Positions 25,050 to 62,220 of a stretch of 64,000 bases of DNA are shown piece by piece. The stretch spans positions 49,166,001-49,230,000 of the forward strand of contig OX597819.1 in NCBI GenBank assembly GCA_951406725.2. Reading direction: 5' to 3'. The notes under the pieces are model-generated. The model did no database searches and was not told the DNA's origin. It saw nothing but the letters and a program-made list of their open reading frames with translations. The first letter of the stretch is position 1. Every line of letters starts with the position of its first letter. The stretch comes from Octopus vulgaris (lineage: Eukaryota). A program made the translations under genes and the position numbers.

Positions 25050-26840
25050 CAATATCATCCTACATATTTGTTGTTTGGTTTCACCTGCAAATGTGATGAT
25101 CCGCTGCTTCCCAAATGAGTCATGGATGCTTTCTTTCCAATGAGTCAATAGCTCCAAGCAAATAAAAGACATCTGGAGAAGCACCGTAACCACTTGAAGA
25201 ACAAGGAAATCAAAAAATTCAGGCAGCTGCTACAAACTAACAAACATGCAAATAAAAGAATGATTAACTAAGTAACAGTTTTTGATAGGGTTTCTCTTCT
25301 AGCAACATACAAGGCATCACTTATAATTAACAATTCACTCGAAGCTCATACAAGTTGTGAAACACTAGTTCTTTCATAGAAGATACAATGAAAGTTTCTG
25401 CCTGGAACAATACAGTATATCATTGCTTCCCACAGTTCATTTGCTATAGATTCTCATATTGCTTTAAAAAAATTCAAATGTCTAAAAGCCTTCACATTAC
25501 AGTTAAATGAGGGTACAGATGTCAGTGAGATGATTCAGCTCATGGAATTTATCTAATTTATAGGAGGTCAAATTATTTCAGTTCTTTTGTTACCACATAT
25601 TGGTAATTACAACTAAGGGTATGGATATTTTCATCTGTATGGCAGTTGCACATACAATATACACTAATGTCACAAAGGCAACAACAGGAGCTGTTAAAGA
25701 TTTTATTGAACATTCACAGTAGAAATTATCTCAACTCAATGTTTTTATAACTTGAGATCTTAATATGATGGGTTCTAAATGATGATCTCTACTCTGTACT
25801 TAATCAAAATGGAAGTGGCTAATTTTGTCAAATCAAGACCTTTACAATCTTATTTCTATATTGAAGTGCATTGGGTGTCTTACAATAAAGTACTGCAATT
25901 CATTATTTATGAACCAAAAAGATGAGAACACTGTTTCCAGAGAATGAAGATCTGCATTTGATCAACATTTATCAGATAATAGTGCTTGATAAGGATATCT
26001 CACTGGTATATCTCACAGCTAACTAAATTCTTTAAAGGAATTAAGGCAGGGAATACAAAAAAATTTAATTGTTTCAATAAATAAGGCAAACACCTTTCCC
26101 AGAAGGCTAGAGTCTTGCAAAAGTACCATTCAGAAGAAGGAAAAGTACCATTCAAAGTGTTTCCCCGTTTTTGCAACACAGAGACAAATGGCCATGCAAG
26201 AGTGTTAAAGATTCTAATATCTGAGGATTTAATTCAGCCACAAGACTTATTTACTACTTTCTCTTTCTATTAGTAATCTTCAATGGTTAGTTGTGCTGTT
26301 CTTTATGGATTTACACAATAGTTACCTCACTGCCACAGAACAAGACCAACTGACTGTCACATCCTGCATCATTTCATTAATATAAAAATTCAAAGAACTA
26401 TTGCTTAATACCTTCTGGATGTCAGTACAAAAAGAATGGTCAGAGAGTGCAGCGAAGACTTTAAAAGAGTCACTACCTTTTCCTAATTCACATTCATGTG
26501 AGTTGGTATTCTCATCAGTAACAAGCATCAAAATGAAAAAAACTATATTGCCCATTATTACTAAAGCTAAGCTGCACATGGTTTTATCAAATATTCCACT
26601 ACGGCTAAATGAAATTTGTAAAATCACATCAAAGTCAGGTGTTTCATTATTAGCTTAGTAACAAACACGCAAGCATCTTTTTTTTTTTTGTATTGCTTAT
26701 TTAAGGTAGATAATTTAATTAATCTTTCTGTGTTAAGATGGCTTCTTAGGACTTTTGAGAGCTAATTATCGGTGGATGAGCTACAAATTTTTTTATATTC
26801 TCTGGGTGTGCCATGTTCTGAGAAAGATTTAGAACCACTA
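25050..26840 (+). mobile_element. Decayed hAT (Charlie/Buster-type) transposase and right TIR
   Basis: FTLQLNEGTDVSEMIQLMEFI at 25491 (cf. FSLQLDESTD), IEVHWVSYNKVLQ at 25860 (cf. TEVRWLSRGKVL), and hAT dimerisation-like FWMSVQKEW...LPFPNSHSCELVFS..IKMKK in ORF 26401. Terminus ...AGAACCACTA. Many stops and frameshifts; left boundary approximate. Confidence 0.85.
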
Positions 26841-28030: not shown

Positions 28031-28630
28031 GTTCCAGCAGACAAAACGGAAAAGGTGTTCCCCCAAAAGATGGTGAGGGAGATGTGCTGGAATAGCCATT
28101 TTGACTCATGGGGCTTGCACTTGTGGTTAGCTATCTTTGCCCCAACAGTGGTAAGCAGGGGTATGGTCCAGGGGCCAAGAACATCAGAGGTCTCCTCTGC
28201 CACAAGCTCAACCATAAACCTGATACTGTGACAGTTTGCTTTTCTCAATCTGATGAGCAGCAGAGCCTGGGCTGGTAGCTGAGCACACCAAGTTGCCATT
28301 GGAGGTGGTGTTATAGCATGTGGCATCCCAGATGAAGGGACTACTACTCTGGAACGGGATAATTGTCATATCATCAGGCTTTTTACCATCCCCTTGGTCT
28401 AGCCCCACTGACCCAAGCTGGGAAGGGAAATCACTGGCATCAAGGCCATGTTTTATGATTTTGTTAAGGGCAGCATGACATCAAAGGTAGCTAGCACTAT
28501 GATGACATGACAATGGGTGGAGGCTGAAAGGATCCCTAGTGGATCTGCAGTAGCATTTGTAAAGCTCACAGATCAGAAGGCCAAGCCTTAGGGAAGTGCA
28601 AATGAAAAGATTTCTTATTGACACTATCCA
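28031..28630 (-). mobile_element. RLE-type (CRE-like) non-LTR retrotransposon C-terminal fossil
   Basis: Zn-knuckle remnant C.C...HPLSC...HAALN, then GDGKKPDDMTIIPF..FIWDATC...PGSAAHQIEKSKLSQY and (frameshifted) VAEETSDVLGP...WLFQHISLTIFWGNTFSVL, a PD-(D/E)xK restriction-like endonuclease pattern. Confidence 0.8.
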
Positions 28631-37290: not shown

Positions 37291-40219
37291 ATAGATTCTC
37301 ATATATTTTCTTTTTCTTGGGGTCAGAGGCCAGGGCATGTTGATGAACAATAACATCTTGGGGTGTAAATTAATGAAATCCTTGTCTCCATATCAATAGA
37401 GTGAAAATGAATGTATTCAAGTCTTCAATTTGAACCAATATAAATAGTCACAAGAGCTATAACATGACAAAGACATTGATATATCATTAACAGAATTTTC
37501 AGTAGTAGCCACTAATCAATATTAAAGCTGAGAAGGTTTTGCAGGACAATCTTTGACAAACTCATGACTGTGCATATTAAATAGAAGATGGAGTCCAGCA
37601 ATCTGGACAAGTCGTTTATTGATGTTTGTCTTACTGAAGCTAACAAGTAAAGAACAACACAAAATGATCTGAATATAATTAAAGCCTGGATAAAGATTTC
37701 TCAATGAGACAGAGACAAGAATTTACAAATACTCAATATTTTTTTTTTCTGATATAAAGATAGCAACTGCAGTAAATCTTATTGATGCAGTCATTGAGAT
37801 TCTGTAGAAAGTCTTAATGTATATCCATGTATTTTATGCTATTAACAAAACACAAGGTTTTATCAGCTTTAGTGGAAGTATTATGGATACACAAGTAATA
37901 TATGAAAGCTATGTCTAAGAATATTGTAATTTCTGCTTCTGATTCATACTTTTATTCGTTTGTATTTTGTCATCTAGTATGTCATTCTTAAAGGAGAATG
38001 AAGAAAAAGAAAACAGAAATGCCACTATTATTCTCTATCTTGTAAACAACCTAGTTGTAACAAACACCTTGTAATTATTTACTGTTATCCTTTTACTGTC
38101 TTCTATTGCTACTGTGCACATGGATGTGTGGGTAACAAGTGCGCTTTGAAACTAGATACTTTCAGGTTCGATTCTAGTATGTGATACTATGAAAATGGAA
38201 AATGTGCTTCTACTAAAGCCTTGGGTCAATCAAAGCCCTATGAGTGAACTTTGGCAGATAGAAACTATGCAGAAGCCTGTCTGAGGGGGGGGGTCCATTC
38301 CAGTTATTGAGTGATAAGTTGAATCCAGCACCAAGTTTAATCCTAGTTTCCTTTGGCAGAGTTCACTTTGTTGGAAGCATTTGAGTCAAGTCTCTGGACT
38401 AAAGATAACTTCTCCCCTCCCTCCCACCAGTCACAAGGGCCCAGAAATGGTTCATGCACACTGCTCTTCCTCATCTCAGTCAATAAGTAAATAATTCTTT
38501 CCATCATATGCTCAGGACTTGAAATTTTTGGGAAAGTCAATTACATTGACGTCAGTGCTCAAATGGTACTTACTTTATTGTCCTGAAAGGATGAAAGGCA
38601 AAGTTGACTTCATTGGAATTTGAACTCAAATGAAATGCCACTAAGCATTTTAACTGGTGTGCTAACAATTCTGCCAGCTCATTACTAGTCAATAAGTAAA
38701 TAATAAAACAGCAGTTGTTTGATCTGCTTGAAGCAAAAGCCAGATATCCTTTAAATTACATTCTACCACTTATGAAAAGAAGGACATATTAGAAAATGTA
38801 GTCCTAGTTATGATGATCACAAATAAAATGCTTTTTAGCGAAGGTATACTAAAATAGGCTGACCGAGGGTTAAACAATAGGCCTTCCTTCCCCATTTGGC
38901 ATAACTAGAGTTTGTACAACACAGAGTGATTTTTTTGTGTTTTCAGACCACCTCCCACAAAAAAAAAACAACAAAAAAAAACAGAACATAATACACTTCA
39001 AATGTGTCACTCCATAAAAATGCTGCCCAAGGCAAGCTGCTCCACCCTGTCCTTCTTTTAGCTATGCTTGTTCCCTGCTCTCAGTGAAGATTAAGAAAAT
39101 ACATAGTTTAATGAATTCAATTGCAAACAAATATTAAAATATGTTATAATCAAAAACCACAAAATGTGAGCTAGAGTTTAGCATAACAGTGACCAATTAC
39201 TCGGGTCAACTTTTAGTTGATAATTTTCCAAATGAAAATAAAAAACAACACAGCTGCAAATAAAGTTGACAGCCATAATTTGGGTTGCCTCCCTTCCACA
39301 ATTGTAAACCAAATATGATTTTTTTATATAGTGCATTAACATTTTGTTTTAGAAAAATAGAAAATTTTTCTTTTCTTTTATTCTCTTTAAACGTTTTAAT
39401 GTTTAACAAGGACTGGATTGTATTAAATGCAAAAGCTTTATGTTGTAAAATGCTATGCTCCATTAAAGATAATAGAATCTGTTTCCTAGGTAACCAAATT
39501 GGGGTTGGAGTAAAATATTGTACAAGAAATAATTGGTAGTGGCTTAGCAGAAATAGTTAAGCAGTGGTTAGAAAAAAAAAAAGACATTGTGGTATTATGT
39601 TACAGCTATTTACATTCAGAGCTCAAATCCCATTGAGGCCAACTCTGCTTTCCATTCTTTTGAGAGTCAATAAAATAAATGGAGATGTGGAGTGGGGGCG
39701 GGGGAGTTAGCCCTTGGTCAGCCCTTTTGAGTATACCTATAATGCAAAACATTTCATTTGTGATCATCCTGTTTTTTTTTTTTTATTCAGAATTAGTATG
39801 TCTTGGACTAGATTATCAAATATGTCCTTCTTTTCATAGGTGGTAGGATGTAATTTGAAGGAGATCTAGCTCTTATTCCTTGCAAGTCAAACAACTGTAT
39901 AGGGGCTTAGAATAGGAGTAGATAGGGGTAGATATATGGATGCATATACCTTACTGCTGAATAATTTCCATATCCTTATAAAGCATCCTATACATGAATG
40001 GTTGTGATGGTGGTGGTAGTGGTAGTAGTAGAAAAGAAGATGAAGATGATGATGATGATGATGATGATGATGACTAGAGCCTATACCAATGATACTGAGA
40101 CATACTGTGTGGTGTAATTATGTTTTCTTGTTATCAGTAGTGTTTGTGCTTTCTTACTATTGAAAGAGACAAGACTAGCATATCTTGACTGGGGACATCT
40201 TCCATACCACTCACACCCT

Positions 40220-40396
40220 TGTGTTAACATGTAGGATGTGTTAACATGTAGGGTGTGTTAACATGTAGGGTGTATTAACATGTAGGGTGTGTTACCATGT
40301 AGGGTGTATTAACATGTAGGATGTATTGCCATGTAGAGTGTGTTAACATGTAGAGTGTGTAACATGTAGAGTGTGTTAACATGTAGGGTGTGTTAA
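40220..40396. repeat. 17-bp minisatellite (TGTGTTAACATGTAGGG) x ~10
   Basis: Read directly from the sequence. Confidence 0.95.
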
Positions 40397-41025
40397 TTAA
40401 GGAGGTGGACTTGAAATGCAAATTTAAAACAAGTCACTGACACAAGCAGTTTTTTTGGTTCTTGTTTCTGTTGTATAAATTTGTTCTCTGGTATACATTC
40501 CTATCAATAAAACATATCTAAGCACATTTAATCCAGAGGTATTAAATGAGTTGATCTAATTAGCAACATAAATTTAACAGTCTTTTGGAGATTCTTTACT
40601 TTCTTAATCCCCTAATCGCACACCAGAAAGCAAGATCATGAATATATATATATATATACTTAATAAAGATGATAGCTAGTATTCACTTGTGTGATTGTTT
40701 ATAACTTGTCCTATATCTCCTGTGTATATAACTTATTTAACTTCACCTGCAAATTAACAATTCTTTTAATGAAAATGATTTTGTATCTATGTGTGTGTGT
40801 ATGCATGTACATATATATATTGTGTGTGTATGTGTATATATATATATATATATATACCACACACACACATGTGTGTATATATATATATATATATATATGT
40901 ATTTATATATATATATACCACACACACACACACATGTGTGTATATATATATATATATATATGTATTTATATATATATATATATATACCACACACACACAC
41001 ACACATGTGTGTATATATATATATG

Positions 41026-43927: not shown

Positions 43928-45132
43928 TATGCATAGTTTTAATAAAAGATCAATAGAATTACATCTGCTGATTTCGAAAGTTTTGTACAATTGTCAGATG
44001 CTTTGTGCATTGATAAATGTTTTAATCTATATTTTAACATATTGAGTCTTTTGTATGTTTGAATACTGTTCTTAAACTCTATATTAAGTTAGTCATCTGT
44101 TTGTGTAACTTACCAATGAAACAATAAATAGGGAATAATTACTAATGAGGACAACATTGAAAATGACTCTTTGTATGACAATTTTTCTTGTATAATATTG
44201 AATAGTCATGACAACAAGAATAGTAAAAACATTTAATCAATATTTATCTCATGATGGTGAATAAAGTAAACAAGTTGCAAGGCATTCTTACAGAATCGCT
44301 CTTCTGTTTTTATTATCCAAATATATATTAGATGCTTCCAGTGTATACAAAATAACAGGAGACCTGCAGGCTGTTCAATATTATATCAAAACAGGTAGAA
44401 AAAATAAACATATAATAGTTTGTTTAATTTCTATTTTAATACCCATTTGACATTAACCCACCTGAGACTGACTTTGTTTCTAACATACAAAACATCTAAA
44501 TTCAAAGTGTTTATATTTAAATTGATACATTCCATCATAATTTTGTATAAGATCCTTCTGTTAGGTATGTCACAACAGCATGATGATGATGATGATGATG
44601 ATGATGAAGGTGACGCCGCCACGAGGATGATGATCTTTCTCTCCTTCCTCCCCTTTCTCTTTCTCAGCCAAAGCCCTCAACAAATTCTTTCCAAGTCATC
44701 CTGTCTCAAGGAATTCTTTCTAACAACTTTTTGTTGTTTCCGTCTTGCTTGGCTTGAAGTTTGCTGAAGTGATTCTTTTTGTCCTGTTGGCTCTCAGGAA
44801 ATTAGAACAACCCTCTTTCCCTATCCTCTCCATATATCAGCAGACAGTACTGATGCTGCTCATTCTGTGTACAGTGGCTTCACCTTCTTTATATCTTGAG
44901 GTCAGAGGTTGTTCCAGTTGTCAACAGGTTTTGCCTAGAAGATATCATCAATCTCTGTGACAGAGAATATCTCTGACTCAAGACAGATGTTTATGTAGCA
45001 AGAAATATCATTATGTGACATGGTTGGTAACCCAACACTGGTGGTTTTCAACCAAATATGTTTTCAACCAGCCCTCCCTATTTTGAGATCAAATCATGCT
45101 AAAGTTAGCTTTGCCTTTCATCCCCTCTAATA

Positions 45133-45402
45133 TCAACTCGACTTGCATCCAGTTCTCATCAGTATACTGTGCAACTTCCTAAGTGTCATAAAGCACTTTA
45201 TAGCACCAGCTTCTTCCCTTGCACCTTTGAACTTTGGAATTTCCTTCCACAGTTTTGTGCTTCTCTTCAATATGACCTCGTGTCTTTTAAGTCTAATGTA
45301 CATTGTCACCTGTTGACTTCTGTCTAGCGTTAATTTTATTCTAGTAGCTCTTACGTTTTCAGTGGTCTAAGGACCTTGTAATGAGTGAATGCTTTAAAAA
45401 AA

Positions 45403-45403
<1 letters not shown>
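45133..45403 (+). mobile_element. CR1/Jockey-group LINE 3' end with A-tail
   Basis: STRLASSSHQYTVQLPKCHKALYSTSFFPCTFELWNFLP...YDLVSFKSNVHCHLL* (SFFPRT..LWN.LP motif), followed by a short UTR and an A-run. Confidence 0.85.
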
Positions 45404-45446
<43 letters not shown>

Positions 45447-46034
45447 ACATGCATGCACACACATGTACACACATCATCATCATCGTCATCATTATTTTAA
45501 TGTCCACTTTTCCATGCTTGCTTATACATAGCCACTGTTGCTACTGTTGGACAATTTTCATTTGTCACTGATCCATTTCTATGTTATTTTTACTCTGTAC
45601 ATCTGTAAGAGATATTATCTCAGGATGGATACCTCAGTTAACTTGGCTTTCCATGATGTATCTGCATTAAGTATGATACACAAATTGATGCATGTATACA
45701 TACATACATACGTACGTACGTACATATTCATATGTATGTATATACTTTGTGTTTATGTGCATGTATATTTTAGGGTGTGTATATATGCTTATGTATTACA
45801 TACACACACACACACACACACACACTGAGATAGCAGAATCACTGAAGCATTGGGTAAAATGCCTTACAATACTCATCCCTTTGGCATTAATAGATAAATG
45901 ATGTACAAGTTGATATTACTTTCTCTCTCTCTCTCTTTCCACTTTCTCTTTCTCTGGAAGAAGTCAACTATGATTAGACCTGGAGAGGAATGGGCTCCAC
46001 TGTGTCTAGATGCTTGAAACATGCTATACACCCA

Positions 46035-46081
<47 letters not shown>

Positions 46082-46097
46082 GTATGTATATAAATAT

Positions 46098-46130
<33 letters not shown>

Positions 46131-46131
<1 letters not shown>

Positions 46132-46436
46132 GTGGAGGCGCAATGGCCCAGTGGTTAGGGCAGTGGACTCGCAGTCGGAGGATTGTGGTTTCAATTCCCA
46201 GAACGGGCGTTGTGTGTGTTTATTGAGTGAAAACAAGGCTCAGGCAGGGGGTGTTGGCGACCCCGGTTGTACTATTTTGCCCCAACTTTCTCTCACTCTT
46301 TCTTCCTGTTTCTTGAGTAACGCTGCAATGGAATGGCGTCCTGTCCAGCTTGGGTGAACACATACACCACAGAAACCAGGAAACCAGGCCCAAGAGACTG
46401 GCTAGGCTTGAAAAGGGTGCATAAAAGAATAAATAA
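46131..46436 (+). mobile_element. tRNA-derived SINE family C
   Basis: GGAGGCGCAATGGCCCAGTGGTTAGG...GGTTTCAATTCCC head; inserted in (TA)n. Confidence 0.8.
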
Positions 46437-46455
46437 ATATATATATATATATATA

Positions 46456-46649
46456 TTGGTAAAAATGGTAAGATAGCAAAAGAAAGAAAGAGACCTCAAT
46501 ATCATGTAAATAGAGGAAATTTATCTGTAAAATAATGTGACAATTATTCAATAGCCAAGATAAAACTCTGAGTTTTGGATGCCGAGGTGGAAATCCACAA
46601 CACCCTGTGTTTATCTTGGCTATTGAATAATTGTCACATACTATTTTAC

Positions 46650-46654
<5 letters not shown>
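46456..46654 (-). mobile_element. Penelope-like pLTR remnant with short inverted arm (sibling of 53989-54429, no U2)
   Basis: Shares GTGACAATTATTC..TAGCCA.GATAAAACTC.GAGTTTTGGATGCCGAGGTGGAAATCCA and the TTGGTA.AAATGGTAAGA terminus with the 54-kb element. Internal inverted repeat at 46522-46564 / 46610-46654; embedded in (TA)n. Confidence 0.75.
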
Positions 46655-46685
<31 letters not shown>

Positions 46686-47420
46686 AGGCCAGTGCTGTCT
46701 TGATGTAGGTGCTATAAGTACTGCAATATTGGGGTCCAGTGAGCCTATGGATCCATTGATAAAACCAAACTATACATCAATAGGAACGGGTGGGGGGGGC
46801 ACTGCTTTGATAAATCACCTGAGCTCAGAAGCCAGCATATGATGTGTGTCTGTGTGTGTGTATACACACATGCATACAGCATAATATATAACACGAACAC
46901 ATATCATAATCTAAGTGCAACAAAATACATAGAAATATATATAAATATATATTTTACATATTGCATACATTGTTTGATATAACGCTATAATGCTTAATAC
47001 ACTGAGTAGAGTGGATAGATATAGCTATCCAATAACATTACACTGCTTTGTTTTGTGGCTATTTAAGCAATGAGTTCATGAATGATTGAAGGGTTAGATG
47101 GGTGCTGGTGAAGGAGGAAAATCTTCTGGAATATGTCACATACGTCCATTACCTATTTTTCATCTTTGATCTCATTGTTTGTTTACATCAGGCAATTCAG
47201 CTATGAAATGTCATAACAAAATCAGTGCTGGCTATAATTTCTAAAGTATATCTGTAGAAATAACCTTAATGAGCGACACAGTAGCACTGCTAACACAGAA
47301 GAACACAGTAGTGAACTTATGAAAATGTTTAATATACTCTGTAGTATATTATTGTTGCATAACAAAATATTGTGTTCCTACAAGTCATTCATTTCAATAT
47401 AATATATCTAATGCTATTTA

Positions 47421-47636
47421 TAGTTAATCCAAACATGAACAAAGAGAAAACACAACAACACAAGGACGTAGAACAAGTATAGTGTTATTGGACGCTCAGG
47501 AAAGGAAAGAAAGAAGGAGGATTTAACGTTTTGAGCAGAGCTCTTCGTCAGAAACATAGAAAAAGGAAGAGTCCAAGGAAGGGAAAACGGAGAAAGAAAA
47601 TCGCCAACGATACACATGTGGTCACATATTGAAATG
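47421..47636 (-). mobile_element. Second hammerhead-bearing (Penelope/retrozyme-like) short element
   Basis: Minus strand 47555-47521 reads GTTT-CTGACGA-A-GAGC-TCT-GCTC-AAAA-C-GTT-AAAT, a minimal type I hammerhead layout with palindromic AACGTT helix III. Element boundaries are approximate. Confidence 0.5.
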
Positions 47637-47812
47637 ATCGGAAGGGAATGGGTGTGTTGGTATAGGTGAAAATGGTGGCGACAAAAAGAGAAAAGTGAAA
47701 GTAGAAAGAAAGAAGAAAGGTAAAAAGAGGACAAGAAAAAAGAGGATGAGAAAAAGTTATATATATATAGGTATATGCAAATGTAAAAAAGTAATATGTA
47801 TTTTATTTCCAA

Positions 47813-48184
47813 CTAGCACTATGACCTGGCAACGCCAGGTCATAGTGCTAGTGCATGCATATACAGCTATGTGCGTGCGCACACACATGCGAGTACTGTC
47901 CAAATCTCTGACCAATCACATAAAGCTAGCTGGTATTCAATTGGTGCATCAAGTTTCAGGCATTTTGATTGGGTTTTGGATAGAAAATTCACAAAAAAGT
48001 CACTTCTTCTGATTTTTTAATGGCTTTGCAGGGTGACTGGGGAAATATAAAGATGTGCACGACTACCCTTGGATGGTTTTGAATGACCATAGAAAGTGCG
48101 AGCTCTCTAACTGAAAAATTGTGAATTTGTATAAAGGATACACACACACACAAACAGACATTTTGCCATTTATATATAGAGAGA
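47813..48184 (-). mobile_element. Non-autonomous Helitron
   Basis: Minus strand begins A|TCTCTCTATATATAAATGG and ends ...CTAG|T, with a terminal hairpin at 47812-47852 and no TSD. Confidence 0.75.
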
Positions 48185-48729
48185 TTTTTGTAACTTTATT
48201 CAATATCGCAATATTTCAATGAAACAGAATAACATTTATTCCATATGTAAAGCAACAGGCAATACACTACTTATATAAAATTCTCCATACAGCTAAACTC
48301 CATGGCATTTCCTTCCCACATATAACAATAGATAATGATTATTGTACCAGACTATGACAATAATATTTGCTCCAATGATACCAAATTGATGCTACCAGAG
48401 AATGTCCAATTCTTCACGCAAAAAATTACAATGTCAGTTGTCAGTAAGCAAGATATAGTTTCTATATTAATACAAAATTCAGATTTTCAAATCGAACTAT
48501 GTTCTAATTCACTACACATGTTTAAATTGCTTGTGAGACATCCTGCTGCATGGCTGTTGTACCTTAGTCGATATGTTTACATTTGTGTTGGAGTTTATTT
48601 TAATTTTAGTTCAAATAATCTGAGTATATGTTGATTCAATATGTGTAATATATTGATCTCTTTCTGTTTGAAGAATACACACCAACATACATGTATATAC
48701 TTATAAATATTTGCGTGTTTGTGAATATA

Positions 48730-48829
<100 letters not shown>

Positions 48830-48875
48830 CATATATATTGAAGATCATCTGAGTAATAACCTCATAGCATGCAGC

Positions 48876-48928
<53 letters not shown>

Positions 48929-49035
48929 TGTCTGTATGTATATGTATGTATATAATATACATTACATCAAAGAGAAGTGTATTGGTTTCAATATACTATA
49001 CCTGTACATTTTGAATCAATGTATAAACTGCAATA

Positions 49036-49073
<38 letters not shown>

Positions 49074-49149
49074 ACACACACACACATGCACATACATACA
49101 CATCTATATGTGTATATATACATATACACCCACCCCATATACAATAACT

Positions 49150-49180
<31 letters not shown>

Positions 49181-49790
49181 CACAAGGTGAACTTAAACAC
49201 AAAGCCATACCTCTGTGTATATGTATATTTGAAACAAACAAAAAAAGGGGAAGAGAAGAGGTAAGAGAGCTAGAGAGAGACAGACAGACAGAAAAGAGGA
49301 AGAAAATGTGAGTACATATCTGTGTCACAGAGAAAGATAGAGAAAGAGAGGTGGGGTAAGGGTAATAGGGAAGTAAGCAGTAATAGTGAAGTGGTTTTAG
49401 CTGCCAAACAGGCGGATGAATGGCATGGGAAAATGAATTTTATGTTGATACTTGTGAATTTTTAATACAAACTGATGTATGTTGCTGTTAGCACTTGATC
49501 AGTAATGAATGAGCAGATCTGCAATCCAGACCATCCATTCCAAGACCAAAACTATCTATTACCTAATGTTCATTCAATGTGGCTCCCGTTTTAAAAAAAA
49601 AATTGTAATGAGTGAGCTGGCAGAATCATTAGCACACCTGATGAAATGCATAGCGCTATTTCATCTGCTGTTGCATTCTGAGTTCAAATTACGCTGAGGT
49701 TGACTTTTCCTTTCATTCTTTCAGGGTCGATTAAATAAGTACCAATTACACACAGGTGTCAATGTAATCAACTTAATCCCTTTGTTTTAT

Positions 49791-49956
49791 AGGCATAGGA
49801 GTGGCTGTGTCATAAGTAGCTTGCTTACCAACCACATGGTTCCGGGTTCAGTCCAAATGCATGGCAACTTAGGCAAGTGTCTTCTGTTATAGCCTCAGGC
49901 CAACCAAAGCCTTGTGAGTGGATTTGGTAGACGGAAACTGAAAGAAGCCTGTCGTA

Positions 49957-49996
<40 letters not shown>

Positions 49997-50222
49997 AATA
50001 TGTGTTTCTGTGTCTGTGTTTGTCCCCCCAACATCGCTTGACAACCAATGCTGGTGTGTTTACGTCCTCGTAACATTAGCAGTTCAGCAAAAGAGACTGA
50101 TAGAATAAGTACTAGGCTTACAAAGAATAAGTCCTGGGGTCGATTTGCTCGACTAAAGGCGGTGCTCCAGCATGGCCACAGTCAAATGACTGAAACAAGT
50201 AAAAAGAATAAAAAAAAAGAGT
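49791..50222 (+). mobile_element. SINE family A
   Basis: Full length, collinear with 10042-10433. Confidence 0.9.
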
Positions 50223-51184
50223 GATTTGAAGAAGATTTGGTAGCTAGATCTAGTAGGTTGCATGAATAGATAAATATTCTCTCATTAGCCTACAAATTAT
50301 TAATTTAGTATAGTATATAATTAAAAAAGAAGACAAATCATAAGATGCTCAATCAGTTAAGAGAAGAATGTCAAGCTATCAAATCTAGGAAGTAAATTGA
50401 GAGATCATACTGGTTTTACATTTTGGCACAAGGCCAGCAATTTGGGGGGAGGGGATAAGTTGATTACATTAAACCCTGTGCTCTACTGGTACCTATTTTA
50501 TTGACCCCAGAAGGATGAAAGACAAAGTCAACCCTGGTGGAATTTGAACTCAGAATGTAAAGACAAATGAAAAGCCACTGTTTTAACCAGCATGCTAACA
50601 GTTCTGTCATCTAGCTGCCTTCAGTTGAGAGATTATATTGATAAGCAGTGATAGTCTTTATCTAGAATGTCTCCTTGGATGGACACAGACATGGAAGAGT
50701 GGCTAAGAAGCTTGCTTTACAATAATAATAAGATACCACTGAGTGGTATCGTAAGCAAGTGTCTTTTATTGTTTGCCCTGGTCAGTCTGAGCCTTGTGAA
50801 TGAAACTGGAGAAACAGAAACCATGGAAACCAGTTGGACAGATTGCATTTATAATTTAAAGCAGTAGTTCTTAGCGGTTCAACATAAGCGACTGATAAAA
50901 TAAGTACTATGCTTACAAAGAATAAGTCCTAGGGTCGATTTGCTCAACTAAAGGCGGTGCTCCAGCATGGTCACAGTCATATGACTGAAACAAGTAAAAG
51001 AGTATATATAAATATATATATATATATATGGTTACATACATATATTGGTCAGTATACCAATGTACAACTAACCAGCACAGCATGCTAAGGAGATCTCAGT
51101 ATATCTGGTCGGATATTTTCCTACACCAAGCACCTGAAGTGATACAGCCTGCACTGATAGATGCAATGCAACAAGAGGCACATA

Positions 51185-51426
51185 AGGCGACGAGCTGGCA
51201 GAAACGTTAGCATGTCGGGCGAAATGCTTAGTGGTATTTCGTCTGCCGCTACGTTCTGAGTTCAAATTTCACCGAGGTTGACTTTGCCTTTCATCCTTTC
51301 GGAGTCGATAAAATTAAATACCAGTTATGCACTGGGGTCAATATATAATCGACTTAATCCGTTTGTCTGTCTTTGTTTGTCCCTTCTGTGTGTAGCCCCT
51401 TGTGGGCAGTCAAGAAATAAGAAATA
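51185..51426 (+). mobile_element. tRNA-derived SINE family B with TSD
   Basis: GGCGACGAGCTGGCAGAAACGTTAGC...GAGTTCAAATT...GACTTTGCCTTTCATCC...AAGAAATAAG; TSD AAGAGGCACAT. More than 20 copies in the window, e.g. 9281-9516, 21956-22160, 34288-34502, 52650-52882, 52910-53125. Confidence 0.9.
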
Positions 51427-52352
51427 AGAGGCACATTATCCTATGGGACAAATGCAGGATGTGTCAAAATGACCATCTTGCTGAACAAAGATTCATACTA
51501 AATCAGTCTTCTGTTTCTTTTATCAGCTGTAAACTCAACAAACACTGCGAAGTTCCTGACATAGATCCTGCGAAAATTATATTGTTACTGTGGATGACAC
51601 CAGGTAGCCCAAACGGTGAATGTGCTTTGACATACTAATAGACATATACCCAAAGTCCAAACAGTTACATATATATGTAGACAAAAGACAACTTACAATA
51701 AAAGATAAAATCAAAGAATAATTTATTTTACACATACCCATTAAAGGAGATGACATTCCACAAATGATTCAGAATGGATATAATATATCCTATGATTCAT
51801 TGTTGTAGCTATTTGTTAAAGATTCCTTAACATTTAAGTTCAGATTTACTTGCATTCCTTCAAGCCCAAATTCCATAATCAAGGTGTGGTTGCACAATGT
51901 AGAACAACTGAGTAATAATTGCATCTACAATAGGGAAATGGCTACATAACTTTTATACAGAAAAACGATAGCTTTTGAAACTGTTAGGATGACTAGATAT
52001 GAAAATGTTTCCCCTTCACTTTGTTTGGTCAAAATTTGCAGCTAAGGAAGAACGGAATTAGCTATGTTAGTTCTCCAGTTCTTCGTGCACTTTTATTTAT
52101 ACGCAGTGAATAAACATTGACATCATGCTTGAGGCATGGTTAACATTGGTGTCAAGTAATCAGTAGTTGGTCTTATTAGTATTTAAGACACGTTTCTTAG
52201 AATTCTGATATGTGACAGACATATTTCATTAACTATATGCTTGCTTAAGATTCACATAATCACTTGTATAGAATTATGCGATTATGTGAAGCTGTTTCTG
52301 AAAGATTTACACTGACAATTTGAAATGCGTGTGCATACACATACACATACAC

Positions 52353-52436
<84 letters not shown>

Positions 52437-53131
52437 TTCATTATGTGTCTATATTTTGTTTACTTCTTAAATAATTCTTTTAGAGTTTTCTTTTAAAAGT
52501 ATGGCCAGAAATTAATGAAATTTAATCAAATGTTAGAAATTCTATAAATTTTAGAAATTATTTCTCTTACTTTTAATATTTCATTTTCTAGATTATTCTG
52601 CAGTTACACTGTTGCATAGTCAGTAAAATTAGCAGTAGTGGTAGTAGTAAGCAGTGAGCTGGCAGAAACGTTAGCATGAAGGGCGAAATGCTTAGTGGTA
52701 TTTCGTCTGCTGCTATGTTCTGTGTTCAAATTCCACCAAGGCCGACTTTGCCTTTCATCCTTTTGGGGTCGATAAATTAAGTACCAGTTACGCACTGGGG
52801 TCGATGTAATCGACTTAATCCATTTGTCTGTCCTTGTTTGTCCCCTCTATGTTTAGCCCCTTGTGGGCAATAAAGAAATAAGTAGTAGTAGTAGTAGTAG
52901 TAGTAATAATCCTTTCTACTAAAGGCACAAGACCTGCAATTTTTGGGCAGGGAACTAGTTGATTACATCAACCCCAGTGTTTCACCGGTACTTAATTTAT
53001 CAATCTCAAAAGGATGAAAAGCAAAGTCGACCTTGGTGGAATTTGAACTCAGAATGTAGCGATGGGTGAAATGCTGCTAAACATTTTGCTTGTCGTGCAA
53101 ATGATTCTGTCAGCTCGCCACCTTAATGCTG

Positions 53132-53174
<43 letters not shown>

Positions 53175-53661
53175 CAACAACAATAACAACAATAATAATA
53201 ATAGTAATAATAATAACAACGATAAGTACCATCCTATATTTGGCAAGAATCCAAAGAAAAATTCTTGAGATTTGAGGGGACTTCCCCGTTGAAATTGCTT
53301 CAGGTAAAAAAATTTTTTTATCCTTATTCAAACCGATCTTTACTAGATTTATTTCCCTTAAAAATTGATTCTTTGCTTTTCTCTTATTACATGTAGGCAG
53401 AAATCAGGATGGTGAACTGTTAAGGGGTGAAAAACTGAAAAAAAAGCTTGAAAGTTACATGTGCAAGTATGGCTACTGTGGTTAAGATACTTGCTTTGAA
53501 ACCTTATGGTTTCAGTTCAGTCCCACGGTGCTGCACCTTGGACAGATGCCTTCCATTACAACCCCCAAGTCAACTAATGCTCTGTGAACTTGGTTGACAG
53601 AAAATGTGTGGAAGCACCTTGTGTGTGTGTGTAAGTGTGTGTGTGTTTATATATATATATA

Positions 53662-53962
53662 TCACTGTGACTGACCAGGCTATCAGATGTTGCTACACAT
53701 CGCTGGTCACAATGCGCTTCACATTGTTTTAGCCTTCAAATGATGCCACCCTGCTGGCTAAGTGAGCAGGCCAACAGAAGAAAGAGTGAGAGAAGGTTGT
53801 GGCAAAAGAGTACAGCAGGGATCGCCACATCCCCCCTGCTGGAGCCTCATAGAGCTTTAGGTGTTTTCGCTCAATAAACACTCATAATGCCCGGTCTGGG
53901 AATCGAAATCGCGATCCTACAACCACGAGTCTGCTCCCCTAACCACTAGGTCATTGCGCCTC

Positions 53963-53966
<4 letters not shown>
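53662..53966 (-). mobile_element. SINE family C with a different 3' tail
   Basis: Same head and body as 46131 up to CTCTCACTCTTTCTTC, then an unrelated tail. Confidence 0.8.
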
Positions 53967-53993
<27 letters not shown>

Positions 53994-54028
53994 GCAAAAG
54001 TAATATGTGACAATTATTCGGTAGCCAT

Positions 54029-54089
54029 GATAAAACTCCAAGTTTTGGATGACGAGGTGGAAATCCATGCCACCATCTCTTCAGTTATC
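54029..54089 (-). ncRNA. Hammerhead-like motif in the inverted left arm
   Basis: Minus strand reads GATAA-CTGAAGA-GATGGTG...CGTCATC-C-AAAA-CTTGGAG-TT-TTATC. Confidence 0.55.
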
Positions 54090-54100
54090 CAACCATCAGA

Positions 54101-54258
54101 TGTAGCATCTGTTCTTATCAGCTTAATATCTGATACGGTCCCTATTTGGGACCATCGATATTAAACTGATTTTTAGAATGAGGCGAAGAGTTAGGGGCTT
54201 GCTCTGCCTTTGCTATGGGTTGGCCTGGTATAGCAGTACTTCCAGGATTCCGCCCACC
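54101..54258 (+). pseudogene. U2: U2 snRNA copy lacking the first ~31 nt
   Basis: TGTAGCATCTGTTCTTATCAGCTTAATATCTGATACG matches U2 from nt ~32 (canonical TGTAGTATCTGTTCTTATCAGTTTAATATCTGATACG). Also present: stem IIb GGTCCC-tattt-GGGACC, Sm-like GATTTTTAG, stem III loop GGGGCTTGCTCT, stem IV CCTGG-TATAGCAGTACTT-CCAGG. Branch-point pairing GTAGTA is changed to GTAGCA and loop IV TTGCAG to TAGCAG. Confidence 0.93.
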
Positions 54259-54284
54259 ATAATGAGGCATTTTTCCGATGGCCA

Positions 54285-54345
54285 GATAACTGAAGAAATG
54301 GCGGCATGGATTTCCATCTCGGCATCCAAAACTCGGAGTTTTATC
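54285..54345 (+). ncRNA. Type I hammerhead-ribozyme-like motif (GAAA core reads AAAA)
   Basis: GATAA-CTGAAGA-[helix II ...TGGATTTCCA...CATCC]-AAAA-CTC-G-GAG-TT-TTATC. Helix I is GATAA/TTATC, the core is CUGANGA, helix III is minimal, and the cleavage triplet is GUU. Confidence 0.6.
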
Positions 54346-54487
54346 ATGGCTACTGAATAATTGTCACATATTACATTTACAGATAAATTCCTCTCTTTCT
54401 TTCTTTTGTTGTCTTACCATTTATACCAATATATATATAAATATATATAAATATATATTGTATTATATTTTATAGACATGTATATAT

Positions 54488-54828
54488 ATGAGGTGGCCCC
54501 TTTTGATCATAAAAGACTATGGGATTGCACCTAGAAAGTTACTCTCTGAGGCACAAGTCTGGGCAAGGTTGCTTATGGAAGGCCAGTAGTTTCCCATGCA
54601 TATCAGCCTCCCCTCCACACACCACTGATGTTATCCAAGGGAAAGGCAAAGGCCAATGCAGCTTGGCACCAGTGATGTTTCAACTCATTTCTACAGCTGA
54701 GTGAACTGGAACAACGTGAAATAAAGTGTCTTGCTCAAGAACACAACACGCAGCCCGGTTCAGGAATTGAACTCACAACCTCATGATCGTAAGCTCGACA
54801 CTCTAACCACTGAGCCATGCATCTTCAC

Positions 54829-54830
<2 letters not shown>
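54488..54830 (-). mobile_element. tRNA-derived SINE family D
   Basis: TGGCTCAGTGGTTAGAG...GAGTTCAATTCC...GTGTTCTTGAGCAAGACACT. A related copy with another tail lies at 18048-18360 (-). Confidence 0.8.
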
Positions 54831-54905
<75 letters not shown>

Positions 54906-57900
54906 TTATAGTCATATATATAAATATATAAAGGTAGTTTGTTAAAGTGTTTAGGATTCATGGAATGATAAAGAATAGTAGTGTTGAACTTTAGCATAGG
55001 GTCACTGACTCCTGTTCTTTTAAACCTGTGTACTTACTGGAGTGTTATTGTTGATTATTTCTATAAGAATCTGTATTAACTGCTAAAAGGTGAAAGCTGA
55101 TATATTAAAGCAGGGAAGTCTATAGTGCTGAATGTGATAAATTAAACAATAAATGGTAACTGAGAGAGTCATAAAAAACCAATGCAAAACATCAACAGGA
55201 TTTTATAAGATACTAATAAATACCACAGATAGCACAGTTTTGATGCAATAGATGCATTTGTAGTATGGAACAAATGTATATTGTAATTTTTATTTGGTTT
55301 AGAAGTTTTAGACAAGGTTCCACAGTACAGATGTTTGCTGGATAATGAGTAGGATGTCAAGAATGGATTTACAACTCAAAATATCTTATCAGAACCAGAA
55401 GGTACTTTTCCATAAAATTCTACAAGTGATAGTGCAGAAATTCTGAATAAGAGTATGCTAGAATTTGAAAACACTTAATTTTCATTGAATAATCATTAAA
55501 AGACAAAAGTAGGAAATCTATGCAGAACAATAATGATTATATGATTTCAAATCTTGACACAAGGCCAGTAATTTTTGTGGAAGGAGTTCATTGATTACAT
55601 CAACTGCAGTACTTGACTGGTATTTTATTTTATTGACTCTGAAAGGATGAAAGGCAAAGTTGATCTCTATGGGATTTGAACTCAGCATATAAAGATCAGG
55701 AAGAAATGCCACTAAGTATTTTGTTCACCATGCTAAGAATTCTGCCATCTTGCTACCTTTGGAACAGTAATAATCAAATGCTAACATTAATATACAGGAG
55801 TTATAATTCTTCTAGTCAATAGGTATTTAATATTTCTGTAGTCCAACAGCAGTTCTGCCTTCTCTTTCTATCCAAACTTCTTGAATTTTAAAGAAATCAA
55901 GGTCAATATGACAGTTGTGAGAGAACCTCCTTGAAGCTATTGATTGCTTCAGATTAAGTGATCAATGATAGAAATCTACATCGATATACAGACACATACA
56001 GTGATATACAGATATTCAGAGATACTTATACTCTCTCAACTGCTTATAGAAACAGCTCTTTCCTTGCTTTAGAGATGCAATAATCTCATTTCAAAAGAGG
56101 TTAGAATGTTTGGTGTATTCTCCCACGGTTCTTGTTCTGAAGAGATATCAGCCATCAGCCATCAACTATTTTTGATATTTTCTCAATAAAATCAAGACGT
56201 TAATATTACTCATTACCTTTTTATGTTTCAAAACTGATGTTATCTATACAATTATTGATAGACTTTTATTCTTGATATTTCTTGTAAAAATTAGTTTTCC
56301 AACATTTTATAACCCCATGGTTCCAGTCAAACGTAATGACTTAAGATTATTAGAAGATGCACAAATAAATATGGGTTTATTCTGAACAGATTGAAATATA
56401 ATCTTAATGATGGACACAACCCAAGGTTACACAAGTATGCAGTGGCAAATAGTCCTGTCATAAAGTAACCATTTAAAAATATTTAAATCCCATAGCCATA
56501 CAATCCATGTCAATAGATAATTATGTTTCTTGTAAAATCAAAGAGATTTTTTTAAAATTTTGTTTAAATGTAAATATATATTTCTTTAATGGTTCTAATT
56601 ATTAAATACCAGTGTGGTTTAGTGTGGTGTTAGAAATATTTGTTGTTGTTGTTGTTGTTGTTGCTGTCACTCAGTTTTAATATGCAAACTCATGATTAAA
56701 GTATTCCAGCCATAATCCCCACCTCAGCCTATCTAATATTACAATATCTATTGTTTTTTAAGATGATGGAACAGGGTACTATTTGTAGCAACCAAAATTT
56801 CCCCACATGTACAACCTCACTTGTTGGCCCACTATGCTTGTATTTGCATAAGTAGACATGCTACATCTGTAAAATACTTACAAATATTGCAACGAGACAC
56901 TCTATGTATGTGCACATTTATAGCACTTATCTTCAGTTGTTACGAATGTACAGCTTACTGAGGCAGTGACTATAACATGCAGTCACTGCAAAGCGCCATG
57001 TGGTGTTCAGAGTTCAAATTAATGAAAATCAATCTAGTACAAACTAGAACAGAATATAAGTGAAGCTAGACAAATGTGATATTGATTCAAGGTCAAAGAT
57101 TATTATTTCGGTTTCTAAGACTACAAAAAGATTGTGTGAAAAACATCTTCAGAAATATCAGGAAGTGAACTAAGACTTGTCAATGTTCAAATGACCTTCA
57201 AACTTTAAACTTTTACTTCTAAAGTAATTTAGCTAATAGGTGTCAACATTCTTACAGCTACTTGGCTAAGTTTCATTTGCTTGCTGCTGTTCTGTATTTC
57301 ATCCAATGAAACACGAGTATTTCCTATTCTTCTTTCTTTTTTCCATATGATCCAATCAATTTTTGTTGGATTATCACTTTTAGGACAACTCTATTTAGTA
57401 GAGCTCCATTCTGGCTGTTTGGCACAGCCTGTTTTTCTACAACAGCTGCAAACAACTGCCAACCCATCAGTATTTTGCTAACCAGGGGGACCCAAGTGTC
57501 TATTCTCCATGACACTTATAACATATTGAGAAACACATCCATAAAAATTGTAAATTATATAACTGAACAATACAGTGTAGACAGCTTAGAAATTACAGAT
57601 GTACTGACAGTTTTGTTAAGATAACTGGGTCATTCAGTAAAAAATCCCAGGATGAGAGTTGGTGTAAAGAAAATAGATGTGTGTGTGCGTGTTTTTATAT
57701 ATGAGGGAGAGAGAGAGAGAAAGCAAGCAAGAGAAAGAAATGAAGGCAAAGGATTTATGTGATGCTTGTATATTTATCTCTCTCTCACAGTATGTGTGTG
57801 TGTAACCCATGCTAGCATGGAAAACGGATGTTAAACGATGATGATGATGATGATGATATATAAATATATACATATACATATAGAGAAATACTTGAGTTTG

Positions 57901-60434: not shown

Positions 60435-62220
60435 CTGAAGAAGAAAATAAAATGTTCAAGATATTTAAAACATAAGAGATTGTTGATACTATTCTGGGAA
60501 TTGATTAGAACTTTATGGTAAAAAAAAAAAAATTAAAATAGAACAAATATATTTTAAGTAAAACGTGTTGTATATTTGTACAAAATATCTGTGGGAGAGA
60601 AAAAAATCTCATTCATATCCTTGATAAATCCTAACTAGACATTTTTGCAGGTGATTGCTATTATCATTTCTATAAAGGTTATTCTTATCTGTTCACTCTA
60701 CCCCACAATCATTATCATCACTACAGACATATTTATTCATTACTTCTTTTAAATCCTGGCTGATAAATAGACTGACATGAACAGATCTCTTGCTCTTTCT
60801 CAATATATCACACATATTTATGCATGCACTGTTAGGAAATAATTCAATTGTGTAACTCAGCTCAAATTGCATTTACTCTGATGTACAAATAAAGACTAAC
60901 TAAATGGTTAAATCATTGATTTACAGCCAGACTACTAAGTCAAAATTGCAACCTACTCCCGCAAGTAATCGCACATCTGTACATCAATGTCTACCTGAAA
61001 AATACCGGGAGTGGAGGCCCAGGGATGAGCCTGCTCTAAATGCTTACAGTAAAGAGAAATTTTTTTAAAGGAACCCAAGAACTAGGTAACGGTGGTGGGG
61101 ATGGTGCTAACCCAGGTGATGATTATGTAAACAAGAGGTATTGTTTAACCAGATGAATTAGGTATATGATCTTATTCATATAACTGAAAACATTAGTGTA
61201 TTTCTCCCTTTGAACAGATTAGTGATTGACTGCATGAACTGTGTTCTTCTTGAAAACGGTTTTTTAAAAGCATATTTGAAATTTGTAGAATCATTCAGTC
61301 TATTTTGGGTCCATAAAAATTCCGTGCAATCCAAGTACAAAGACCAAGGGAAACAAAATAATATTCAGAATTTCATAGGTGCAGGAGTGGCTTGTTCCCA
61401 CACCATCGCTTAACAACTGATGTTGGTGTGTTTATGTACCCATAACTGAGCAGTTCGGCAAAAGAGACCGATAGGCTAAGTACTAGGCTTACAAAGAATA
61501 AGTCCTGGGGTCGCTTTGTTCGACTAAAAGTGGTGCTCCAGCATGGCTGCAGTCAAATGACTGAAGCAAATAAAAGAATAAAAGAATAAAATAATAAATT
61601 ATGTGAACAGAAGATGAGCCATCAAGAACAAGGTCCAGAATGGTGAGAAAGCATCTAGCTGTCTCTGACTGAGAAGAGGTGATAGTGGGACCAGAAGAAG
61701 GCCACTTGGACACAGGCCTAGACTTTACGAACCTTGGTCTGGTTGTCTTATAAGTAATATATAGGCTTTTTTTTTTTCTTTTCGTCATTTTTTACATTCT
61801 GAGTTCAAATTCTGCCAAGGTCAACTTTGCCTTTCATTCTTTCGGGGTTGATAAAATATACACTAGTTGAACACTGGAGTTGATCTAATTGACTTATTCC
61901 CTCCCTCAAAATCGCTGACCTTGTGCCAAATTTTTAAAATCAATACATAGGTTGTTTACATAAATTTTCCTTCATTCATAACCTCCAAGATGAAATGGTG
62001 TGTGTGTGTGTGTTTGTCACAAGTTCTTATAAAATTGGTCATATTGATTAATATTCTGCCAATTCTCTTCTACTTTTACGCAATAGTCAACAAAAGATTG
62101 GATGATGCTAGTACCATTTTAATTTATATCAGTTAATCATTTTTCTTTAGATCTACATCAAACCTCACCAATTAGACCTATAATGAATGACATTCTCGGT
62201 AAGACCATGCCAACTATTTT

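Follow-up and report, generated by a model that had tools for sequence, protein, structure and literature searches.

The pair of inverted arms at 54 kb in the window, the 64,000-nucleotide stretch of Octopus vulgaris DNA analysed here, is very probably a dead, heavily 5′-truncated insertion of an endonuclease-bearing Penelope-like retrotransposon (PLE), for which we propose an origin from two primed cDNAs and a jump to U2 snRNA, and whose hammerhead motif would now be inert. Evidence for a PLE comes from the head-to-head arms, the high copy number of the family, a tail on one arm, ends in (TA)n, and a family-majority core that has both G12 and G10.1. No reverse transcriptase or GIY-YIG gene was found among the window ORFs of at least 90 amino acids or in a crude motif scan of 44000–57500, and Pfam gave no match above cut-off for the five of 90 window ORFs searched; with neither gene seen, PLE membership therefore rests on structure. 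Points against it are a tail of about 65 nt as opposed to the usual 30–40 nt reported in PMC8557442, an unpaired nucleotide 3′ of helix II that most PLE minimal hammerheads described in PMC4209133 have between positions 9 and 10.1, the lack of an Rfam hammerhead, and a descriptor result that, taken from the window alone, lies within chance.

Two inverted insertions end in (TA)n

The window is AT-rich (35% GC) and carries many microsatellites. Two insertions in it share one plan (Table 1): the left and right arms of the 54-kb element stand head-to-head and are 88% complementary over 115 nt, and the insertion at 46457–46652 has the same combination of a long and a short arm, with U2 absent. In both window copies the arms are inverted, 5′-truncated pseudo-LTRs (pLTRs), each of the four outer ends lies in (TA)n, and a tail with a full length of about 65–67 nt is found on one end only.

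Table 1 Features of the two inverted insertions, in window coordinates
Feature	Positions	Strand	Basis
(TA)n left flank, likely target site; (CA)n precedes	53982–53993	.	sequence
Left arm: inverted, 5′-truncated pLTR without tail	53992–54100	-	repeat pairing, arm alignment
Left-arm minimal type I hammerhead, decayed: G12A at 54046, G10.1 kept, CTTGGAG	54024–54093	-	
U2 snRNA fragment, decayed pseudogene, model position 32 to about the 3′ end	54101–54256	+	Rfam RF00004, 127 bits
10-nt linker between U2 and right arm; 2 nt possibly U2 end	54257–54266	+	
Right arm: pLTR with tail	54267–54428	+	arm alignment, run contigs
Right-arm minimal type I hammerhead, decayed: G10.1A at 54297, G12A at 54328	54281–54350	+	
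Tail, one arm only; 45 nt after 22-nt deletion, against about 67 nt in 46.5-kb copy	54384–54428	+	alignment with 46.5-kb copy
(TA)n-rich right flank	54429–54460	.	sequence
Second member, long arm with tail; ends inside helix II; CAAAA core	46457–46597	-	
Second member, 12-nt junction; short CACA/TGTG palindrome at its edges	46598–46609	.	
Second member, short arm; start equivalent to 54340, at most 1 nt from predicted cut	46610–46652	+	

To place these arms in a family, we aligned contigs from four of 24 listed public runs (X1, X4, X6 and X8, with three organism labels) to 54140–54432 at 80% likeness; 5469, 4324, 2862 and 398 contig records aligned in the four runs, whose depth is not a copy count and whose variant letters are unphased. 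Loose contig ends behind 54385 enter (TA)n in all four runs, marking the short end of the arm, and it is this short end of the family that forms the outer end of the left arm; those behind 54398, present in each of the four runs as well, contain the 22 nt that the 54-kb tail has lost. A strand switch occurs at 8 of the 12 listed joints, so other copies also have inverted arms.

A profile made from the four arms gave no further arm copies in the window below E = 0.05, and the window holds no head-to-tail tandem arm units, its four arms being two inverted pairs. Outside the window, a 19-nt arm pattern returned 17 metagenome and 8 prokaryote loci; all 25 matches are 19–31 nt long and were rejected as chance.

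The family core is a complete hammerhead core

Both 54-kb arms carry the parts that an earlier reading made from the sequence alone (the sequence-only reading) had named: a GATAA/TTATC helix I with 5 of 5 pairs in each arm (54285–54289 with 54341–54345 in the right arm, where it is extendable by 4 bp, 54281–54284 with 54347–54350), a CTGAAGA box (right arm, 54290–54296), an extended helix II (54297–54326) and a GUU triplet (54338–54340). The motifs also point outward as it had stated, the left arm reading on the minus strand and the right on the plus, and CAAAA replaces CGAAA in all three cores of the window (54327–54331 in the right arm), that of the 46.5-kb long arm included. Its CTCGGAG helix III, claimed for both arms, is found in the right arm only; the corresponding letters are CTTGGAG in the left arm and CTCAGAG in the 46.5-kb arm. 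This segment forms no hairpin (0 kcal/mol) and can instead form a 4+4-bp self-duplex with one central mismatch, at −9.7 kcal/mol for the right arm and −6.8 and −7.4 kcal/mol for the others.

A second lesion, absent from the sequence-only reading, is the A at 54297, by which the right arm loses the G10.1–C11.1 pair; the left arm retains G10.1. On the 3′ side, a single unpaired C separates helix II from the core. The predicted cut in the right arm falls after 54340. Only the 3′ half of the motif is present in the long arm of the 46.5-kb copy, whose other arm begins at the cut site.

By window evidence alone, a hammerhead is not clearly beyond chance. A strict hammerhead descriptor had 0 matches over the window, and a relaxed one (G or A at position 12) had one, the left arm, with at least one match in 14 of 200 shuffles; none of the six Rfam matches up to E = 10 in 53900–54500 is a hammerhead, and folds of the isolated motifs gave no signal against shuffles (z of −1.16, +1.05 and +0.04). 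The case for a hammerhead therefore comes from the letters of the family in the run contigs rather than from window statistics. At 54328, G accounts for 89.1, 87.6, 93.1 and 89.0% of the depth, and at 54297 for 96.0, 95.7, 97.0 and 89.2% (X1, X4, X6 and X8, respectively). Across the four runs, no variant at 5% or more is listed in CTGAAGA or at 54329–54331, the only such variant in helix I lies at 54343, in X8 only, and no indels are listed in the aligned arm contigs, the extra C staying 3′ of helix II. Taking the contig majority letters, the family core is thus a full CUGAAGA...CGAAA, plus a single unpaired C on the 3′ side of helix II. An AAAA consensus would have spoken against the sequence-only reading; in four of four runs G12 is the majority letter. 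Its assignment of the motif to minimal type I hammerheads of the Penelope-like kind is supported.

Covariation in helix II appears only suggestive from these letters. None comes from helix I or from the four innermost pairs of helix II, which are nearly invariant. Further out, the pair 54307–54316 is T-A here and C-G in two and T-G in three of five loose-end consensuses, and 54308–54315 is broken in three of the five (both scored by eye on unphased letters); letter agreement within these consensuses is 0.59–0.80, and two internal helix II mismatches vary freely among them. A second subfamily is visible in the loose ends, with helix II unchanged in length.

Origin of the AAAA core

The suggestion that CGAAA became CAAAA by CpG decay is borne out: G at 54328 accounts for 88–93% of depth, and CpG is depleted across the window (observed/expected, 0.27). 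These observations support descent of the window's AAAA from an ancestral GAAA. Rather than each arm having decayed on its own, a sub-lineage already without G12 may have kept transposing, in which case cleavage would be dispensable for mobility; compatible with a truncated Penelope-like insertion, this is a genuine though doubtful possibility. In its favour, CA stands at the core CpG in 3 of 3 arms as opposed to 1 of 14 positions at five other majority CpG sites, which show TG in 6 of 14 arm positions (all by eye), and non-G letters at 54328 reach 7–12% of depth against 3–4% for T at 54327 in the genome-sized X1, X4 and X6. Core mutants of the anole PLE hammerhead, moreover, still insert in vitro, as reported in PMC11167929. 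The window arms are, however, strongly decayed as a whole (at six majority CpG sites, 10 of 17 positions, counted by eye) and sample two insertion events only, and contigs with the reference A align more easily and so inflate the frequency of A; reference bias could be the source of the A excess at 54328.

A decayed U2 fragment between the arms

The first 31 positions of the Rfam RF00004 model fall on the left arm, so that true U2 starts at model position 32 (54101). Where most contigs have C, at 54179, 54205, 54214 and 54216, the piece reads T (three of the four in CpG context), and at model position 37 (54106) it reads C against a consensus U. With its first 31 positions missing and four minority letters in 54140–54256, it falls short of a functional U2 gene, which would be full-length with its 5′ stem and branch-recognition region intact, and, judged by these letters, is a decayed pseudogene.

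Listed U2 contigs stop at 54248–54256 and listed arm contigs start at 54267 or beyond. No contig among the 32 pieces listed (13147 more lie beyond the listing) bridges U2 and arm, even for the 54-kb locus itself, and among the joints listed none leaves from the U2 end. Depth at 54250–54259 is 1.36, 1.76 and 1.27% of that at 54280–54289 in X1, X4 and X6, an upper bound, as part of it comes from U2 contigs ending at 54256. X8, possibly an RNA run, has no cover over most of U2, which carries no weight because U2-like records may have been filtered out. Because the junction depth is tiny and neither a bridging piece nor such a joint is listed, we conclude that U2 is a rare or single capture. To call U2 the cargo of the element, as the sequence-only reading did, is thus to overstate its part, since the typical family member is without U2 and junction depth is at most 1.3–1.8% of arm depth. 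Nor does this depth agree with a SINEU-like, U2-headed family of many copies, though it leaves room for a handful.

Entry of U2 through a template jump by reverse transcriptase is most likely; its sense and the position of its 3′ end beside the truncated arm fit such a jump. Template-switch chimeras of snRNAs with LINEs have been described (PMC4476161, PMC4494074), as has host sequence captured between PLE pLTRs (PMC3846280), and no PLE–snRNA chimera was found in the literature searched. We rejected a Keno-type insertion into a U2 gene, as Keno is a Tx1 LINE and here two arms enclose U2 within (TA)n. That U2 was ligated to a 5′ end produced by the ribozyme we likewise rejected: 74 nt separate the junction from the cut site, which lies downstream of it.

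Over 54140–54256, several low-depth long contigs contain diverged 3′ halves of U2, with 11–17 other letters; the genomes in the runs therefore carry many U2 pseudogenes. For the giant squid, PMC6962438 reports about 1300 U2 loci.

Cleavage and alternative explanations

On either strand, whole-element RNA folds as an arm–arm hairpin of about 115 bp, with energies of −211.9 and −227.1 kcal/mol (z of −18 and −24 for the two strands), in which the probability of helix I pairs is about 1e-47 on the plus strand and 1e-57 to 1e-59 on the minus; in RNA from 54101 onward, helix II forms and helix I has a probability of 0.00. Since the motifs lie on opposite strands, there is no dimer in cis, and since the antisense arm is transcribed first both ways, timing would presumably not rescue the fold. 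According to PMC2553840, the G12A change makes hammerheads slower by a factor of more than 500, and of as much as about a million. On these grounds, the 54-kb copy almost certainly no longer cuts. Self-cleavage of transcripts from either strand downstream of U2, as the sequence-only reading had it, fails on the arm–arm hairpin, the missing same-strand partner and G12A in both arms. Its wider picture, of a mobile unit that carries U2 and whose transcripts of either strand cleave themselves just past it, keeps in its favour that the family-majority core is intact and that both motifs face outward. Helix I pairing is, however, negligible in the whole-element RNA and in RNA from 54101, no same-strand partner is present, G10.1A joins G12A in the right arm while the left has G12A, junction depth is 1.27–1.76% of arm depth and U2 is without its first 31 nt; this picture is already largely refuted and can be given hardly any credence.

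Inverted repeats, TA-rich flanks and high copy number would suit the capture of U2 by a non-autonomous DNA transposon of the MITE or Pack type, one bounded by terminal inverted repeats and targeting TA, the resemblance to a hammerhead being incidental. Yet the outer ends differ, only one arm having a tail in each window copy, truncation of the inner ends varies and the majority sequence has a complete hammerhead core in correct geometry, and we consider such a transposon very unlikely. Somewhat less remote, but still improbable, is that two separate PLE fragments flank an older U2 pseudogene, or that U2 came from genomic DNA during repair: the many diverged U2 copies in the runs, the roughly 1300 U2 loci of the giant squid (PMC6962438) and the agreement of the 54-kb arm pair with each other (41 of 45 positions alike), scarcely different from the 40 of 44 for some cross pairs, would accord with this. 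What tells against it is that both inner junctions are flush and without microsatellite whereas four of four outer ends lie in (TA)n, that one arm is long and the other short as in the 46.5-kb copy, and that U2, which shares the sense of the tailed arm, stops at roughly its mature 3′ end. A single truncated PLE insertion with a U2 jump is the reading that we prefer.

A proposed origin by two-primed insertion

In such an insertion, the PLE reverse transcriptase–endonuclease of an autonomous copy elsewhere would have nicked both strands of a (TA)n tract, and two cDNAs would have been primed on pLTR RNA from two start sites, one for the long arm with its tail and one for the short arm. The first cDNA would have passed an uncut hammerhead as far as 54267, jumped to the 3′ end of U2 snRNA and copied U2 back to about nt 32, with the two cDNAs joined afterwards. 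The anole PLE protein is reported to extend both target strands, with two RNA start sites bounding the tail, and the hammerhead of that element to require protein (PMC11167929). In the autonomous parent, the motif would be a weak ribozyme assisted by dimer formation or protein, its helix III formable only between two copies; PLE minimal hammerheads are described in PMC4209133 as inactive monomers and weakly active dimers. The 54-kb copy would be inert through its decayed core, the lack of a same-strand partner and read-through RNA that forms a long hairpin.

Arm ends and a possible link to splicing

Loose ends before 54267–54270 finish in a pyrimidine-rich stretch followed by TAG, resembling a 3′ splice site, and 5 of the 8 listed strand-switch joints have one end at 54266–54270; 54267 is the first position of the right arm, and the left arm begins at the equivalent of about 54274. 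The stop of U2 at nt 32 adjoins what we take to be the U2 branch-recognition sequence. In D. virilis, the Penelope intron ends just before helix I (PMC4209133). A reverse transcriptase stalled on a spliceosome at a retained intron might truncate at 54267, jump to the bound U2 and stop near nt 32, and arm ends gathered at the cut site would be evidence of cleavage in vivo; we think this combination unlikely, if worth recording. The clustering near 54267 may be an artefact, because the reference loses the family sequence at exactly that point. Both leads are weak; that of arm ends at the cut site consists of the start of the 46.5-kb short arm, at most 1 nt from the predicted cut, and one joint at 54339.

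At the short-arm end (54375–54385 and 46644–46652), a T-rich stretch is followed by CAG, which is acceptor-like and may be only microhomology to (AT)n.

Neighbouring repeats

A SINE-like repeat has two copies, at 46133–46260 (+) and 53850–53963 (-), with 83% column identity and a head that we assume to be tRNA-like. Each copy adjoins one of the PLE-like insertions, with a microsatellite between them; the adjacency probably reflects a common preference for microsatellite tracts. Another abundant interspersed repeat occurs in both orientations, at 52656–53116, 49614–49781, 50414–50574, 51183–51312, 55590–55760 (this copy identified by eye) and 61778–61938. Two short stop-to-stop frames presumably resemble, respectively, the C-terminus of a hAT transposase (26386–26658, +) and a LINE restriction-like endonuclease (28208–28480, -); neither had a Pfam match. 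A tandem array at 40203–40422 has a 17-nt unit in at least nine overlapping registers.

Comparison with known elements

The motif resembles the PLE minimal hammerheads described by Cervera and de la Pena in 2014 (PMC4209133) in its CUGANGA/GAAA core, G10.1–C11.1, 5-bp helix I, long helix II, near-palindromic helix III suited to dimers, and a pair on opposite strands a few hundred bases apart (100–700 bp in the pLTRs reported there). Unlike those hammerheads, it has its unpaired nucleotide 3′ of helix II and not between 9 and 10.1, and the window copies have G12A. Endonuclease-bearing (EN+) PLEs are described with an inverted, 5′-truncated pLTR, a tail at one end and a target bias to TA or microsatellites (PMC8557442). 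The insertions share with Penelope/Poseidon, Neptune, Nematis and Hydra (PMC8557442, PMC11167929, PMC3846280) the head-to-head 5′-truncated arms, the tail at one end, the AT-microsatellite target and unrelated host sequence between pLTRs; unlike them, the window copies have no ORF and a tail of about 65 nt. In the anole PLE the ORF starts at an ATG that opens helix II (PMC11167929), and a like ATG here begins a frame at 54298–54360 (+) that stops after 20 codons. The hammerhead would argue against the Naiad clade, and the (TA)n target would fit Neptune without proving it.

As in the U6/L1 chimeras of PMC4476161 and the SINEU of PMC4494074, an snRNA lies upstream of the truncated 3′ end of a retroelement and shares its sense; unlike in these, the partner is a PLE, U2 is without its 5′ end, an inverted arm closes the element and there is no poly(A). 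The U2–arm unit is also not an amplified family, as SINEU is. With the non-LTR retrozymes reported in bioRxiv 10.64898/2026.07.22.740005, the insertions have in common that they are non-coding, related to PLEs and bear a type I hammerhead, but retrozymes are head-to-tail tandems with hammerheads on one strand, and the arms here are inverted with a single motif per strand.

Significance

Minimal hammerheads on opposite strands in truncated PLEs are an arrangement known since 2014 (PMC4209133). In the octopus literature searched we found no description of this arm family, which may already be catalogued in Repbase or Dfam, both outside that search. The family is very abundant, and the 5′ end of each arm records a stop of reverse transcription; a genome-wide tally of arm ends could therefore address both hammerhead cleavage by PLEs in vivo and the keeping of introns by PLEs. 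For the anole element, PMC11167929 reports no reads at the hammerhead cut site; if arm 5′ ends did form a second peak at that site, this would be genomic evidence for PLE hammerhead cleavage in vivo. If the reverse transcriptase did stall on a spliceosome, intron retention in PLEs would be tied to snRNA capture. The PLE–U2 chimera, at one locus, may add PLEs to the LINEs as partners in snRNA template switching.
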